From assembly GCA_965232515.1 (NCBI GenBank), contig CBDDPY010000002.1, forward strand, positions 2,208,001-2,272,000: DNA of 64,000 nt. Reading direction: 5' to 3'. The position numbers were made by a program, and so were the translations under genes. The notes below the pieces were generated by a model, which worked only from the letters and a program-made list of their open reading frames with translations, searched no databases and was not told the origin of the DNA. The stretch comes from Alphaproteobacteria bacterium. Lineage in GTDB: Bacteria > Pseudomonadota > Alphaproteobacteria > GCA-2731375. Below are positions 42,455 to 47,752 of this stretch, one piece after another. How positions within the stretch are numbered: the first letter of the stretch is position 1; each line of letters opens with the position of its first letter.

Positions 42455-44106
42455 CGCGCGAAGCGGATTTCATCATCGTCGGCTCGGGCTCGGCCGGCAG
42501 CGCGCTCGCCAGCCGTTTGAGCGAGGACGGCCGACACGACGTGCTGGTGCTGGAATATGGCGGCATCGACGCCGGCCCGCTGATCCAGATGCCGGCGGCG
42601 CTGTCGTACCCGATGAACATGGCGCGTTACGACTGGGGCTACGAGACCGAGCCGGAGCCGTATCTCGGCGGCCGCCGCCTCGCCTGCCCGCGCGGCAAGG
42701 TGGTCGGCGGCACCTCGTCGATCAACGGCATGGTCTATGTGCGCGGCCACGCCCGGGACTACGATCACTGGGCGGACCAGGGCGCGGCCGGCTGGGCCTA
42801 TGCGGATGTTCTGCCTTATTTCAAGCGCATGGAATCATCACACGGCGGCGAGGCCGGTTGGCGCGGCACCGACGGACCGCTGCACGTGACGCGTGGACGC
42901 CGCCGTAACCCGCTATACGAGGCCTTCGTGCAGGCCGGACGCGAGGCCGGTTACGAATTGACCGAGGATTACAACGGCGCGCGGCAGGAAGGCTTCGGCG
43001 CCATGGAGATGACGGTCTGGCAGGGCCGACGCTGGTCGACGGCGAACGCCTATCTGAAGCCGGCGCTGAAGCGGTCAAATCTATCGCTGATGCGCTGCTT
43101 CGCGCGCCGCGTCGTGATCGAACAGGGCCGCGCCACCGGCGTCGAGATCGAACGCGGCGGCCGCATCGAAACGGTCAGCGCCCGGCGCGAGGTCATCCTC
43201 GCCGCGTCGGCCATCAACTCGCCGAAGCTGCTGATGCTCTCCGGCATCGGGCCGGCCAACGCGTTGCGCGCGCATGGCATCGACGTGATCGCCGACCGGC
43301 CGGGCGTCGGCAGCAACCTGCAGGACCATCTCGAACTCTACGTGCAGCAGGAATGCCGCCAGCCGATCACGCTCAACGGCAAGCTGAACCTGATGTCGAA
43401 GGCGCTGATCGGCGCTGAATGGCTGTTCTTCAAGTCAGGCGACGGCGCCACCAACCATTTCGAGTCGGCGGCCTTCGTGCGCTCCAAGGCCGGCGTCGAG
43501 TATCCCGACATCCAGTATCACTTCCTGCCGGCGGCGATCCGCTACGACGGCAAGTCGGCGGCAAAGGCGCACGGCTTTCAGGCGCATGTCGGGCCGATGC
43601 GCTCGGCCTCGCGCGGCGACGTGCGGTTGCGCTCCAGCGATCCGACGGACGATCCGGCGATCCGCTTCAACTACATGTCGCAGCCGGCGGACTGGGCGGA
43701 CTTCCGCACCTGCATCCGCCTGACTCGCGAGATCTTCGCCCAGCCGGCCTTCAAGAAATTCGCCGGCGCCGAGATCGCGCCCGGCGACGCGGCGCAGTCC
43801 GACGCGGCGCTCGACGACTATATCTGCGGCGCGGTCGAGAGCGCCTATCACCCCTGCGGCACCTGCCGCATGGGGCGCGCCGACGACATGCATGCGGTGG
43901 TCGACCCCGAATGCCGGGTGATCGGCGTCGACGGTCTCCGGGTCGCCGACAGCTCGATCTTCCCGCGCATCCCGAACGGGAATCTCAATGCGCCCTCGAT
44001 CATGGTCGGCGAGAAGGCCAGCGACCACATCCTCGGCCGGACGCCGCTGCCGCCGGCGAACCAGGAACCCTGGATCCACCCGCACTGGCGCGAGCGGCAG
44101 CGGTAA
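42451..44106 (+). CDS. betA: Choline dehydrogenase (GMC oxidoreductase)
   Basis: [48 protein letters not shown]. Confidence 0.95.
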
Positions 44107-44183
44107 TGAATATCCCGACCGACGGAAGAAAACCAATGATCGAGATCGATGACAAGATTCTAAGCGCTTGAATATGTATGGGG

Positions 44184-44738
44184 CTAGATTTCGATCATTC
44201 TGGTTTCTTGTGCCCAAGCGCGCCAGTCGATTTCTTCTGAGTTCACCAGTTCCAATGACTCTTCGAGCGCATGGTGGTTCATAAAAAGAGTCAAATTCTG
44301 GCACTGCCAACGTGCCGAGGGTGAAATCAAACCATCGAGGCCCATGTAGTTTATGGCGGTTCCGATGACTTGCGTTTGCGCATAGTTGCGTTCGCCATAG
44401 CGTTCGGGATCTACGCCCAATTGCTCTAGGTCTGCCATCGACAGCGTAACGGTTTTGCTCGTAGTTACCGCAAGCTCGTGGACAACAAGCGGTTTGGACG
44501 GCATTGGGTTTTGCAGCGCTAGATAAGATACAACTTCTGCCAGTGCTCCGTCCCGTTCGAAGCTTGTGTATAAGACGGGAAATCCCGGCTCGCCATTAGG
44601 CCGGGGAGCCCAACGGCCGCCATTGAGAGAGGCGGCCGTTGGGTCAAAGCTCTTACCAGTGACGCGAAAAACTGACCCTCTGAAAGAAGTTTGTTCGCAT
44701 TGAGCCAGCGTGTCGGTCAGCTTTTGGTCAATTTTCAC
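44184..44738 (-). CDS. RES domain toxin (NAD+ phosphorylase family)
   Basis: VFR, GGRW, LYTS, ALAE, PSAR, NL motifs; GTG start. Confidence 0.88.
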   Translation of the reverse strand: MKIDQKLTDTLAQCEQTSFRGSVFRVTGKSFDPTAASLNGGRWAPRPNGEPGFPVLYTSFERDGALAEVVSYLALQNPMPSKPLVVHELAVTTSKTVTLSMADLEQLGVDPERYGERNYAQTQVIGTAINYMGLDGLISPSARWQCQNLTLFMNHHALEESLELVNSEEIDWRAWAQETRMIEI

Positions 44739-44756
44739 GAGCCGGTCCTAGACACT

Positions 44757-45095
44757 CTACATATGGACAGCATCCCGCATCTGATTGACCAGATGTCGGA
44801 CATCATCAATCCGTCCATTCTGTATCAACTCAGCAGGCGAATGGCCTTGGAGGAGCTTTTGCGGCGCGAACATCCATTGCCGAGCTTCACTCGGCTCATA
44901 GAAATCAGATAGTTGATCGACAATATACTCTAGCTCAAGGAGCGTCTTCTCTTTCTTTGGTTGTGGATATGCACGGCCTTGATTCCATCTTGAAACCGTT
45001 TCCGGCCTTGTTCCAAGAAGGTTAGCGACTTCGGTACTTCTCATCGCTCCCTTCGATTTGATGGTGTCCAGCCGCTTTGCAACGGCTCCCATCAT
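44757..45095 (-). CDS. Xre/MbcA/ParS-type antitoxin with N-terminal HTH
   Basis: EVANLLGTRPETVSRWNQG HTH; ARQWMFAPQKLLQGHSPAELI toxin-binding domain; RBS GGAGGGAGG. Confidence 0.88.
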   Translation of the reverse strand: MMGAVAKRLDTIKSKGAMRSTEVANLLGTRPETVSRWNQGRAYPQPKKEKTLLELEYIVDQLSDFYEPSEARQWMFAPQKLLQGHSPAELIQNGRIDDVRHLVNQMRDAVHM

Positions 45096-45143
45096 GTCCC
45101 TCCCTCCAATTTTGTGATCATCGCAGTTCCTCCTTTCAACGCA

Positions 45144-46445
45144 TTACTTTCGTCGGTTGTCTTCTCTTGTCTGCCGGTCCAGTGGAGCCTTAGTCGGTTC
45201 CTCTATCGGATTGACTTCTGCTAAATGCGCCATCGCCTGGCGGAAACGACCCATCTTCTTTTGCTTTTCCGTTAGGTTCTTCTTTAGAGTGGCGTCCAAC
45301 GACTTAAATCCTGTCGTCGCCGCGACGTCATCAGAAACACGGCGAACTTCGTTATCGAGATAGGTCTGGATACGCACCGCTTCGGGCGCAGCGCTGATTT
45401 CCTTAACTTGCCGCGAGCGTTGATAAACGAAATGACGGGACGGGTGCTGCAGCATATCGGGTACGCCCTTTGGACAGCAGTGAGTGTCCAGGCAACCAAA
45501 CCGACCATGCAAACGCGAATTGGACTTAAGGAGCGCAGCCGCATCCGCAGGCTTCAAAAGCAAATCAAGCTTGGGAAAATACACGCGTACCGGCAGCCCA
45601 CCACCTTGTTTCGATTTGCGTGGATTTCGCCATGGAGCAGGCCTGAATCCTTCAAGCATCGTAATGCCGTGTGCGATGCCGCCAACAGCACTGAAAGCCA
45701 TTAGACCCAAACCAGGCAAACCGCCAACCTGATCTGCCACAATCGGCACGCCAAGCGCCTGGAAATCGGTGCAAGCCTCTATGTAGGCAGCCGTCTTCTC
45801 GCCCGTCGCATCTGAACCGAAATTCTCAATTCTCAACCACAACGCCTCGAAAGGTGCATCCGCCACGGCGGCAACGAGGGCTCGCCTTTGAACGCGGTCG
45901 CGCAGTATCTGAATTGGCAGTGCCAGCGAGTACAGCAGAGATAATTCCGATCCCTGCCTGTCGAGTGCTTCCTGCAGATAACCCATCATCGCGATGTCGC
46001 GGCGCAACCAAGGATCGTTCGGACTTTGCAAAATATGGGTTGGACCGAGGATTTGTGTGAAACCATAGGTTTGCGCAAACTCAGCGATTTGAGCGGCACA
46101 TTTGCGACCCTGGAACATATCGAAGTCTTCTAGTCGATTCGGACGATCCATCCCCCATGGCAGGTCACCAATTGAGCTCGAATAGCCACCAATAGTTGCA
46201 GCCTTTTGGGTTTGAGGGTCGAGAACAACATCCAGATTTTTCTTGAGAGCTTCGGCAATCAGTTCCTTATGCCGAACGGCACAGGAAGCATCAATTATGA
46301 CACCGAAAAAGTCGCTTATGCCCTCGGCCAGCAGGCCCAGCATATCCTTATGCTGATTGTGACCGACGCGGAGATACAAACCCAACCGGCGCATTTCTGG
46401 GCGCGCTCCGACCGGGCGCGGCAGGTGAACCACTTGACCAGACAT
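45144..46445 (-). CDS. Uncharacterised 433-aa protein, predicted alpha/beta (TIM-barrel-like) with Cys/His cluster
   Basis: Long low-GC ORF with RBS AAGGAG; alternating beta/alpha pattern; VLDPQT; CLDTHCC...H. Confidence 0.8.
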   Translation of the reverse strand: MSGQVVHLPRPVGARPEMRRLGLYLRVGHNQHKDMLGLLAEGISDFFGVIIDASCAVRHKELIAEALKKNLDVVLDPQTQKAATIGGYSSSIGDLPWGMDRPNRLEDFDMFQGRKCAAQIAEFAQTYGFTQILGPTHILQSPNDPWLRRDIAMMGYLQEALDRQGSELSLLYSLALPIQILRDRVQRRALVAAVADAPFEALWLRIENFGSDATGEKTAAYIEACTDFQALGVPIVADQVGGLPGLGLMAFSAVGGIAHGITMLEGFRPAPWRNPRKSKQGGGLPVRVYFPKLDLLLKPADAAALLKSNSRLHGRFGCLDTHCCPKGVPDMLQHPSRHFVYQRSRQVKEISAAPEAVRIQTYLDNEVRRVSDDVAATTGFKSLDATLKKNLTEKQKKMGRFRQAMAHLAEVNPIEEPTKAPLDRQTREDNRRK

Positions 46446-46464
46446 GGAGTGTTCTCCTTTCTGG

Positions 46465-46548
46465 ATTGACTATATCATTGACAAATATATTGCGCAATAA
46501 ATTGTTTTTATAATTGACGTAATTGTTGACGAATTTGTTAATCATAGC
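46465..46548. repeat. Seven degenerate 12-bp tandem repeats (RTTGAC core)
   Basis: ATTGACTATATC/ATTGACAAATAT/ATTGCGCAATAA/ATTGTTTTTATA/ATTGACGTAATT/GTTGACGAATTT/GTTAATCATAGC. Confidence 0.75.
46469..46497 (-). promoter_or_regulatory. sigma70-like promoter TTGCGC-N17-TATAGT for the three-gene island
   Basis: -35 at 46497-46492, -10 at 46474-46469, just upstream of the RBS; -35 lies inside palindrome TATTGCGCAATA (46488-46499). Confidence 0.65.
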
Positions 46549-46657
46549 GTCGGGCCAATGCCTGTGTGCATAACCATGATGAAGGGTGGTCCGCTTGGAA
46601 TCACTTTATGGCTGTCGACGCGACCCTCGGCACTACGGCCGCAAATGATCTGTGCCT

Positions 46658-47752
46658 CTACTCCAAGCGTCGCCGGAACAGCCAAGCCGCGGCGCTGAGG
46701 GTGCAGAGGGCGATGAGGGCGAGCGGCCAGGTGTTGTCGACGACGTTGATGGCCGGCATGTCCTTGGTGAAGACGCCGTTGACGACGACGATGAAGTGGC
46801 GCAGCGGGTTGATCAGCGTGAACTGCTGCAGCCAGTCCGGCATGTTCTCGACCGGGCTGGCGAAGCCCGAGAGCAGGATCGCCGGCGCGGCGAAGAGGAA
46901 GCTGCCGAGGAAGGCCTGCTGCTGTGTCTGCGACAGCGAGGAAATGAACAGGCCAACGCCGATCACGGACAGGAGATACATCACCAGGCTGCCGTAGAGC
47001 AGCAGCAGCGAGCCGGTGAACGGCACGGCGAACGCGAAGACCGCGGCGATGAGAAACACCGTGCCGTGGAACAGGCCGATCAGCAGCGACGGCACGGTCT
47101 TGCCGACCAGGATCTCGGCCGGCGTCAGCGGCGAGACCAGCAGCTGGTCGAAGGTGCCGAGCTCGCGCTCGCGCGCCACCGACAGGGCCGTGACCGACAA
47201 GCCGATCAGCAGCGTGATGGTGCCGATCAGGCTCGGCACGATGAACCATTGATGCTCGAGGTTGGGATTGAACCAGTCGCGCGTCACCAGCACGCTCGGT
47301 GGGCCGGCCGCGAGGTCACGATTGAACTGGTCGACGATGCGCGCGGCATAGCCCTGCACGATCTGCGCCGCGTTCGAGCGCCGGCCGTCGAGAATGAGCT
47401 GCGCCGTCGCCGGCCGGCCGGCGGCGATGTCCGCGGAAAAGCTCTGCGGCAGATGCAGCACGACGAGCGCTTCCTGCCGGTCGATGACGGGGCGGATCTC
47501 GGCGACGCCGTCGAGGAAGCGGATCTCGCGGAACGTGGGTGCGCCGACGAAGCGTTGCACCAGCTCGTGCGACCACTTGCCGGGATCCTGGTTGAGCACG
47601 GCCATGCGCACGTTCTCCACATCGAGCGTGGCAGCGAAGCTGAAGACCACGAGCTGCAGCAGCGGCGGCACGATCAGCACCATGCGGCCGCGCGGGTCGC
47701 GCAGGATCGCCAGCAGCTCCTTGACGATCAGGGCGGTGACGCGGCCAAGCAT
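46658..47752 (-). CDS. ABC-2 type permease (YbhR-like)
   Basis: KELLAILRDPR, ARERELGTFDQLLVSP, LLSGFASPVENMP; start MLGRVTAL. Confidence 0.9.
   Translation of the reverse strand: MLGRVTALIVKELLAILRDPRGRMVLIVPPLLQLVVFSFAATLDVENVRMAVLNQDPGKWSHELVQRFVGAPTFREIRFLDGVAEIRPVIDRQEALVVLHLPQSFSADIAAGRPATAQLILDGRRSNAAQIVQGYAARIVDQFNRDLAAGPPSVLVTRDWFNPNLEHQWFIVPSLIGTITLLIGLSVTALSVARERELGTFDQLLVSPLTPAEILVGKTVPSLLIGLFHGTVFLIAAVFAFAVPFTGSLLLLYGSLVMYLLSVIGVGLFISSLSQTQQQAFLGSFLFAAPAILLSGFASPVENMPDWLQQFTLINPLRHFIVVVNGVFTKDMPAINVVDNTWPLALIALCTLSAAAWLFRRRLE

Follow-up and report, generated by a model that had tools for sequence, protein, structure and literature searches.

Tripartite toxin-antitoxin systems that carry an accessory gene exist, toxin-antitoxin-chaperone systems being one example. 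RES-Xre systems are known as persistence factors, plasmid stabilisers and, lately, phage-defence effectors, always as pairs or single proteins. RES toxins act as NAD+ phosphorylases that release nicotinamide and ADP-ribose-1''-phosphate (PMC6436930, PMC9503650), a conserved Arg/Glu/Ser signature defines the RES domain (Makarova 2009), RES-Xre systems autoregulate (PMC12204516), and the described systems are treated as gene pairs, COG5654-COG5642 being such a pair (Makarova 2009). A preprint on aRES presents standalone proteins of 300-600 amino acids (aa) that carry a second domain, lack operon partners and use RES-mediated NAD+ phosphorolysis for anti-phage defence (aRES preprint). Another describes Cap10, a 37-kDa protein with the tRNA-guanine transglycosylase (TGT) fold from type IV cyclic oligonucleotide-based anti-phage signalling systems (CBASS), which has no Zn site, works with a CD-NTase and the QueC-like Cap9, and binds a partner enzyme that it holds inactive (Cap10 preprint). 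Here we analyse a three-gene locus in a 64,000-nucleotide stretch of alphaproteobacterial DNA (contig CBDDPY010000002.1, positions 2,208,001 to 2,272,000; hereafter the window), where what reads as a RES-Xre pair of the MbcTA kind is preceded by a gene for a 433-aa protein with a predicted TGT-like barrel.

A sequence-only reading of the window had singled out this locus as three co-oriented genes with short gaps and proposed it as a candidate tripartite toxin-antitoxin or defence system. The list of open reading frames (ORFs) agrees with that layout, with 48 bp between the large gene and xre and 18 bp between xre and the RES gene. The features of the locus, whose three-gene architecture we regard as very probable, are the following:

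45144-46445, minus strand: large accessory gene (433-aa barrel protein, ATG start), an ORF of an uncurated family
44757-45095, minus strand: Xre/MbcA-type antitoxin gene (112 aa, ATG start; helix-turn-helix and C-terminal toxin-binding domain), from the PF09722 and MbcA matches
44184-44738, minus strand: RES toxin gene (184 aa, GTG start; MbcT-like), from PF08808, with the catalytic signature intact
46446-46545, minus strand: putative promoter/operator region, from sequence reading, a palindrome and an 18-locus alignment
44113-44127, minus strand: weak terminator-like stem-loop (tentative), 57 nt 3' of the RES stop codon

The last two genes read as an MbcTA-like RES-Xre type II pair. The toxin scored 65.9 bits against PF08808 (cut-off 23.2; E 5.4e-18) and the antitoxin 29.7 bits against PF09722 (Xre_MbcA_ParS_C; cut-off 24.5; E 6.6e-7). 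Among solved structures the antitoxin matched MbcA (6fkg_C, E 8.5e-16, residues 18-110) and, with 112 aa against 115 aa for MbcA, it has no extension. The single RES sequence matched no PDB chain at E ≤ 1, so we regard this RES as a divergent branch; a profile of 38 orthologues reached MbcT (6fkg_A) at E 1.5e-20 and ParT only at E 1.4e-4. The ParST models NF049844/NF049845 were not reached (20.9 bits for RES against a cut-off of 110, and 36.6 for Xre against 90). The R (in FR), GxRW, Y, AE and PSAR positions are invariant in all 38 aligned toxins, and each is present in the window RES. By analogy with its family, this toxin would be expected to phosphorolyse NAD+ to nicotinamide and ADP-ribose-1''-phosphate, and the Xre protein would neutralise RES and repress the operon at the CAAT-repeat operator described below.

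The large gene is tied to this pair far more closely than chance would allow. Taking as testable those loci with at least 1000 bp of sequence downstream of the large gene, xre and then a RES gene, both in its orientation, followed it in 27 of 27 close loci from species-representative genomes; these genomes contained 29 loci with a relative of the large gene, all labelled Alphaproteobacteria or Pseudomonadota. The same order was found in 59 of 60 testable distant loci from metagenomes, where a search with an 11-sequence subgroup alignment yielded 80 loci of a subfamily only ~31% identical to the window large protein. Among plasmids, 12 of 72,556 records hold a relative (27-34% identity), one of them from Gordonia (Actinomycetota), and the seven records inspected all show a hypothetical protein, then an Xre/MbcA/ParS or DUF2384 antitoxin, then RES. 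The linkage thus held in 93 of 94 testable loci, down to ~30% identity, and the large gene was never found without the Xre-RES pair; the co-occurrence across genomes that the sequence-only reading had proposed as a check is general. In the single exception (L116:2018-3676) the large gene and xre share one 552-aa ORF, with no RES gene in the remaining 1166 bp, and this may be a genuine gene fusion or else result from a frameshift or from misassembly. Many bacteria from soil and sea carry the trio, on chromosomes as well as on plasmids. It is rare among sampled genomes: of 40 relatives, 3 had the module, in two cases in a decayed state, and it was present in none of 400 further genomes across the phylum at E ≤ 1e-10.

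The surroundings of the trio are heterogeneous, the commonest Pfam family occurring 3 times among 146 neighbouring ORFs, and no fourth partner, DpdB- or QueC-type gene recurred among them. On plasmids, some trios lie beside repABC or ParB, and others are on conjugative plasmids, next to a restriction endonuclease or abutting qatA-qatB. The last case is a Celeribacter conjugative plasmid (L179, NZ_CP022197.1, 3992-8798) in which qatA-qatB of a QatABCD anti-phage system follow the trio with a 4-bp overlap. QatC of this system is QueC-like, so that a TGT-fold gene stands beside a QueC-family gene, as in type IV CBASS; only 1 of 7 plasmid loci shows it, and a near-identical Pukyongiella locus has a restriction endonuclease in place of the qat genes. 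Two repABC plasmids, from Nitratireductor and Mesorhizobium (L177, L182), share the arrangement repABC, trio, opposite-strand tyrosine recombinase/integrase, DUF1403 gene and scpB, which hints at a conserved plasmid backbone cassette.

The 100 nt 5' of the large gene are conserved as DNA across genera. In the window they contain a ribosome-binding site, AAAGGAGAA, at ~46452-46460, a palindrome, TTGCGCAA, at 46490-46497 that doubles as a -35-like TTGCGC with a TAnnnT -10-like box 17 nt downstream, and four GTCAA(T/C) repeats starting at ~46530, 46518, 46482 and 46470. Of 18 loci, 13 have TTGCGCAA at -51 to -56 and 4 more have a one-base variant of it. In the 18-locus alignment the TTGCGCA core is invariant or nearly so, and CAAT-type repeats (GTCAAT, CGCAAT, TTGCGCAAT, GTCAAT, GTCA) spaced ~11-13 bp apart, about one helical turn, overlap the TTGCGC-17 nt-TAnnnT promoter-like pair, which is followed by AGGAG. 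A generic sigma-70 scan did not rise above chance, with 2 promoters against 1.8 expected in shuffles. In line with RES-Xre autoregulation, this region most plausibly contains the Xre operator, whose position 5' of the large gene would place that gene inside the autoregulated operon. The single promoter ahead of the trio that the sequence-only reading had predicted agrees with this conserved promoter/operator region.

The three proteins also diverge together. Over 38 matched loci the Mantel r was 0.91 between the large protein and Xre, 0.90 between the large protein and RES, and 0.86 between Xre and RES (0 of 2000 permutations as high), and it was 0.62-0.87 when subfamilies were taken singly. 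The slowest to evolve is Xre (mean distance 0.46; 0.61 for each of the other two), as expected for a hub role. Such co-divergence is a sign of a stable unit and not of interaction, because co-inheritance alone could yield it.

The dependence is one-way: the large gene was never found without the pair, and the pair does well without the large gene. A RES-profile search of 300 genomes of the class, with the window's own genome excluded from the counts, returned nine close RES loci in eight genomes (E 1e-39 to 1e-61). The large gene was intact in one of them; in another (G029) it was broken into three frames and RES was displaced by an insert; two (L162, L173) retained short remnants of it directly 5' of xre; four (L171, L172, L174, L175) had no large gene within 1.3 to 5 kb 5'; and one was cut by a contig end. 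One locus (L029) keeps only residues ~300-360 of the large protein, directly 5' of xre. On a maximum-likelihood tree of concatenated Xre and RES (44 rows), the loci with remnants or with no large gene are scattered over at least three separate positions between trio members. A clade of 5 members (100% support) consists of such loci only, and the well-supported branches force three changes. The RES catalytic residues are intact in six of seven loci that have lost the large gene or retain remnants. On this evidence the trio is the ancestral state, and loss of the large gene, with the pair retained, happened repeatedly, at least three times. Since these losses left Xre-RES intact, the large protein is accessory and not a required antidote, and since the pair persists without it, Xre must be able to restrain RES by itself.

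In L171 xre is immediately preceded by the conserved operator. In L172, L173, L174 and L175 the upstream motif is an inverted repeat, TTTCAT...GTGAAA, that replaces the TTGCGCAA/GTCAAT array, which suggests that in this clade the operator changed after or together with the loss of the large gene. Two Alphaproteobacteria (L011:7635-10061 and L176, G029:C1, 2466-3777) carry an insert of 1.3-2.4 kb between xre and the RES gene, and the first ~15 codons of that RES gene are missing. The G029 module is decaying as a whole, its large gene being likewise broken across three frames.

The window 433-aa protein matched nothing above cut-off in Pfam, NCBIfam or PADLOC-DB v2.0.0. The same was true in Pfam of 38 diverse family members, for which PADLOC gave one chance match (Cas8e, E 0.017), so that the suspicion that the large gene is uncatalogued was correct for both Pfam and PADLOC. 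The family itself is large, with 673 representatives of 50%-identity clusters at E ≤ 0.001 (221 at ≤ 1e-30) and conserved length. A word-indexed search gave 287 matches at E ≤ 0.001 and, among the 120 listed, all were unnamed or 'hypothetical' and without a Pfam domain. ESM-Atlas neighbours were likewise unnamed clusters, and no fused forms of 819-2335 aa were found, which is weak evidence.

An AlphaFold2 model of the large protein built from a 40-sequence alignment (predicted local distance difference test, pLDDT, 92.0; predicted template modelling score, pTM, 0.90) consists of eight beta/alpha units, forming a barrel over residues ~20-290, and then a helical C-terminal domain. In Foldseek against the PDB, ranks 1-16 were all TGT (E from 5.9e-6, TMq 0.38-0.51, ~400 columns). 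VIA, a structural aligner that does not depend on Foldseek, placed archaeosine TGT (ArcTGT) first (Z 19.2, 300 aligned residues, root-mean-square deviation (rmsd) 3.7), followed by bacterial TGT (Z 18.9, 303 aligned, rmsd 3.9), QTRT2 (Z 17.1, 295 aligned, rmsd 3.8), the DNA preQ0 insertase DpdA (Z 16.0, 269 aligned, rmsd 3.4) and CBASS Cap10 (Z 15.5, 273 aligned, rmsd 4.3), with generic glycosidase-type barrels at Z ≤ 14.8. The model thus supports a (beta/alpha)8 barrel with TGT-superfamily-like architecture, the fold that the sequence-only reading had guessed, and on this structural evidence we consider the large protein rather likely to be kin of the TGT superfamily. The host genome carries its own canonical Tgt elsewhere, together with QueA of the queuosine pathway. 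This Tgt (L036:1456-2580, G000:C2; 374 aa, PF01702 E 1.4e-155) reads NCPASRDYSRAYLHHL at the expected place of the Zn motif, where bacterial TGTs carry CxCxxC, and two of the three motif cysteines appear to be missing from it.

Conservation was assessed over 110 sequences with 27-55% identity to the window large protein. R26, D76 (98%), W97 (100%), P135/H137, D150 (95%), G260 and R358 are near-invariant, and C318, C323, C324 and H338, which form a Cys3His cluster spaced C-x4-CC-x13-H in the family, are 95-98% conserved. The window translation contains both the VVLDPQT motif, which includes D76, and GCLDTHCCPKG...H338. The VLDPQT motif pointed out in the sequence-only reading is therefore genuine, and so are the cysteines and histidine of its CxDxxCC...H cluster; the aspartate of that cluster fared less well, D320 being kept in 79 of 110 sequences (72%), and H322 is not conserved. 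In TIM barrels the usual active or ligand site lies at the C-terminal ends of the strands. Judging from the secondary-structure string of the model, most of the near-invariant residues of the large protein would lie at or just after these ends, where carboxylates and aromatics are conserved at the barrel top (D52, D76, D150, D/E238, E265, W97, W146, W203, H137), and the conserved polar residues R26, D76, W97, H137, D150, D/E238 and G260 make up a candidate pocket. D76, D150 and D/E238 are candidates for a TGT-type catalytic Asp pair (nucleophile and general acid/base). The family is basic (mean isoelectric point (pI) 9.4). Its charge lies in the Cys/His C-terminal domain, which is positive in 38 of 38 members (mean net charge +9.3, range +4 to +15); the barrel part is approximately neutral, and RES is acidic (mean pI 5.2).

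The overall explanation that we favour, although its probability falls slightly short of even, is a mobile three-gene operon in which the barrel protein acts as a sensor or modulator of RES-Xre. The conserved operator/promoter would drive the large gene, then the Xre antitoxin and then the RES toxin, the trio forming a self-contained, horizontally mobile operon. The barrel protein would not neutralise the toxin; its pocket and basic Cys/His domain would bind a nucleobase-containing ligand or nucleic acid, and this binding would be coupled to RES release or activity, probably via contact with the Xre-RES complex. A plain addiction module would in this way have been turned into a conditional growth-arrest, plasmid-competition or anti-phage device. 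Cap10, which holds a partner enzyme inactive, and aRES, with its NAD+ phosphorolysis, provide precedents. The role of accessory sensor or modulator, taken by itself, is a tentative assignment with a probability well under even.

Complex predictions, made with three chains and custom alignments and in both respects unlike the calibration, gave interface scores (ipSAE) of 0.37, 0.47 and 0.38, with a median of 0.38; the best of 3 controls scored 0.00. In the calibration, 58 of 80 solved complexes and 2 of 110 mismatched pairs attained the ipSAE mark, but at values ≤ 0.60 only 7 of the 80 solved complexes and both of the mismatches did so. The runs agree in at least 62% of contacts, with partner pLDDT of at least 86, and lend weak support to binding of the barrel protein to Xre-RES. 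Several observations weigh against the favoured explanation, the low complex score among them. The Z margin of the TGT-type matches over generic TIM barrels is modest (15.5-19.2 against 14.8). At the sequence level PF01702 (TGT) was unmatched in 38 of 38 family members at E ≤ 5, and hhalign gave a probability of 0.40 against the genome's own Tgt and 0.38 against a 31-Tgt alignment; the best E of a PDB profile search with the large protein was 1.2. Because of these profile comparisons the likeness to TGT holds for architecture and not for sequence, and the TGT/DpdA relation suggested by the sequence-only reading stands at the structure level, in two aligners, but fails at the sequence level. 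The C-terminal Cys/His domain folded alone (pLDDT 93.2) matches only generic helical hairpins (best Z 6.0), has no Foldseek match at E ≤ 0.001 and retrieves no TGT in either top 50. The cluster does follow the barrel, as a site placed like the TGT Zn site would, but the isolated domain does not match TGT. Position 238 is Asp in 72 of 110 sequences, Glu in 34 and another residue in 4, and an Asp/Glu exchange is unusual for a catalytic nucleophile. As to a role in defence, no PADLOC model matches the large protein, few restriction-modification or insertion sequence genes and no defence-island setting were seen among the 146 flanking ORFs, and a relative of the large gene was found in none of 50,697 phage records (tblastn) and in no viral contig scanned; a BFVD fold search returned only weak generic barrels and, from rank 14 downwards, a few phage TGTs. 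Finally, the large gene is intact in only one of eight testable RES-anchored loci outside the window's genome, so that this accessory gene is often dispensable.

A more specific form of the sensor hypothesis, which we judge rather improbable, is that the barrel represents a new sensor class on the TGT/DpdA scaffold that would read a nucleobase-bearing signal and license the NAD+ phosphorylase toxin. Candidate signals would be 7-deazaguanine-modified or otherwise unusual phage or plasmid nucleic acid, a free deazapurine or an NAD-derived base; in a bolder variant the barrel might conjugate Xre or RES with a nucleobase, the reaction that Cap9/Cap10 carry out on CdnD. If this were true, the trio would be an unrecognised abortive-infection or plasmid-exclusion system in which nucleic-acid modification is read and NAD+ destruction is the answer.

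Among the alternatives, the one that survives best, although unlikely, holds that the barrel protein is an autonomous TGT/DpdA-like base-exchange enzyme acting on tRNA or DNA, carried as cargo, and that Xre-RES merely stabilises the carrier element with no cross-talk between them. Its fold is indeed closest to base-exchange enzymes, the basic Cys/His domain suits nucleic-acid binding, and the Zn site of QTRT1 is said to stabilise nucleic-acid interactions (Cap10 preprint). Trios do lie beside repABC or ParB on plasmids, the toxin-antitoxin pair outlasts the large gene as addictive modules do, and the Tgt and QueA of the host genome make it probable that 7-deazaguanine precursors are available. 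Cargo, however, normally shuffles between addiction modules, whereas here the same Xre-RES lineage accompanies the large gene in 93 of 94 loci and the genes co-diverge (r 0.90-0.91). Furthermore, the putative operator lies 5' of the large gene and so includes it in the autoregulated operon, no DpdB- or QueC-type partner recurs among the 146 neighbours, and the large gene was never found alone.

Less likely still is a metabolic partnership, in which the barrel would act on N-glycosidic bonds of small molecules derived from NAD+ (nicotinamide, ADP-ribose-1''-phosphate), either rebuilding NAD+ for recovery or converting the toxin product. The carboxylates and aromatics at the barrel top resemble those of glycosyl-transfer enzymes, the generic structural matches are glycoside hydrolases, RES products are ribosyl-1''-phosphate compounds, and phages act on the same metabolite, ADP-ribose-1''-phosphate, with a dedicated phosphatase and NARP1, according to the aRES preprint. 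But no NAD-salvage barrel (type II phosphoribosyltransferase) was among the best 50 structural matches, a small-molecule role leaves the strongly basic Cys/His domain unexplained, and losing a recovery enzyme while the toxin is intact would seem costly, yet loss is frequent.

We find it more doubtful again that the barrel has lost nucleic-acid chemistry and, like Cap10, handles its protein partners, binding or covalently modifying Xre or RES so that the toxin is held or primed. The five best structural matches include Cap10 (Z 15.5, 273 aligned), which holds its partner enzyme, CdnD, inactive; the weak support from complex prediction (0.38 against 0.00), the basic domain facing an acidic RES, and the plasmid trio that abuts QatABCD with its QueC-like QatC point the same way. 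Cap10, on the other hand, has no Zn site, whereas the large-protein family retains its Cys3His cluster; a QueC-like Cap9 partner does not recur among the 146 neighbours, the Qat adjacency concerns one of seven plasmid loci, and Xre-RES is viable without the large gene.

That the adjacency is incidental, or that the 433-aa ORF is not a functional gene, might be suggested by the frequent loss or decay of the large gene in relatives, but it is effectively refuted by the conservation data: 673 cluster representatives of conserved length at E ≤ 0.001, invariant residues across 27-55% identity, a confident fold, a conserved ribosome-binding site and operator, and linkage in 93 of 94 testable loci.

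In the window, the operon stands out in composition, with a GC content of 0.50-0.56 (500-nt windows, 44000-46749) against 0.63-0.72 in the flanks. On one side lie a BetI-type TetR regulator and a GMC oxidoreductase (betA-like), and on the other two ABC-2 permeases and an ABC ATPase. No mobility gene was found among the six flanking ORFs scanned, and no direct repeats flank the island. The lower GC and the position between betA and an efflux operon with no mobility gene had both been described correctly in the sequence-only reading. In empty-site comparisons relatives matched only the betA part of the flank (in genome G004, betA is not followed by the ABC operon), so that the insertion boundaries could not be set in this way. 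A terminator scan found 1 site against 3.1 expected in shuffles, which leaves the stem-loop at 44113-44127 not above chance. Four RNA runs that carry the same species label gave 0 mapped reads, which says nothing for or against expression of the locus. A 13-nt inverted repeat (44135-44147 and 44187-44199), whose arms are 92% complementary and 39 nt apart, extends across the RES stop codon into the intergenic region where the RES gene and betA converge, and may be a bidirectional terminator.

The core of the locus is of the known RES-Xre (MbcTA-like) kind, and the barrel partner and the trio are undescribed as far as we found. In full-text literature searches no article described RES-Xre with a barrel or TGT-like partner, although supplementary operon lists may bear on this, and PADLOC and Pfam have no model for the large protein, in line with the sequence-only reading, which had proposed the system as a candidate undescribed one. 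Public annotations of the large gene read 'hypothetical protein' throughout those examined, and for this reason the family merits a curated model. The trio adds to RES-Xre a widespread unnamed partner family (673 representatives of 50%-identity clusters) that occurs in Alphaproteobacteria as well as on at least one actinobacterial plasmid and shares the architecture of the queuosine, archaeosine and dpd base-exchange enzymes. Its natural three-gene and two-gene versions are ready controls, which makes RES regulation beyond the antitoxin directly testable.

Compared with MbcTA, the window pair is alike in that the antitoxin aligns to MbcA and the RES profile to MbcT, with the same antitoxin-then-toxin order and short gap. 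It differs in the extra 433-aa gene upstream under the same putative operator, and in its RES, which has kept the serine of PSAR; the segment of MbcT aligned with it is PAAG. Toxin-antitoxin-chaperone systems also have a third gene co-transcribed with a type II pair, but here the third gene is upstream and encodes a 433-aa barrel with no SecB-like Pfam match, and pairs of the window type survive its loss. A chaperone reading was rejected on the absence of a SecB-like domain, on that survival and on the antitoxin having no extension. With the TGT superfamily the large protein shares the best structural matches in two aligners over ~300 residues, a Cys3His cluster located beyond the barrel, in a helical region of basic character, and acidic residues at strand ends; on the other hand, it has no detectable sequence homology to these enzymes, its cluster reads C-x4-CC-x13-H instead of the CxCxxC...H of TGT, and its operon is without queuosine or dpd partner genes.

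The two conflict systems offer the closest functional parallels. As in aRES, a RES domain of the kind that degrades NAD+ to nicotinamide and ADP-ribose-1''-phosphate as a defence effector is present, but the window RES has only 184 aa and comes with an Xre antitoxin and a barrel partner in a three-gene operon. Cap10 is a TGT-fold protein in a conflict system and a top-five structural match of the large protein, whose family differs from it in keeping the Cys3His cluster and in being paired with a toxin-antitoxin module; neither a QueC-like Cap9 nor a CD-NTase gene is present in the window island or recurs among the 146 neighbours. After Cap10, the trio would represent a second recruitment of the TGT scaffold into a conflict system, here tied to NAD+ destruction.

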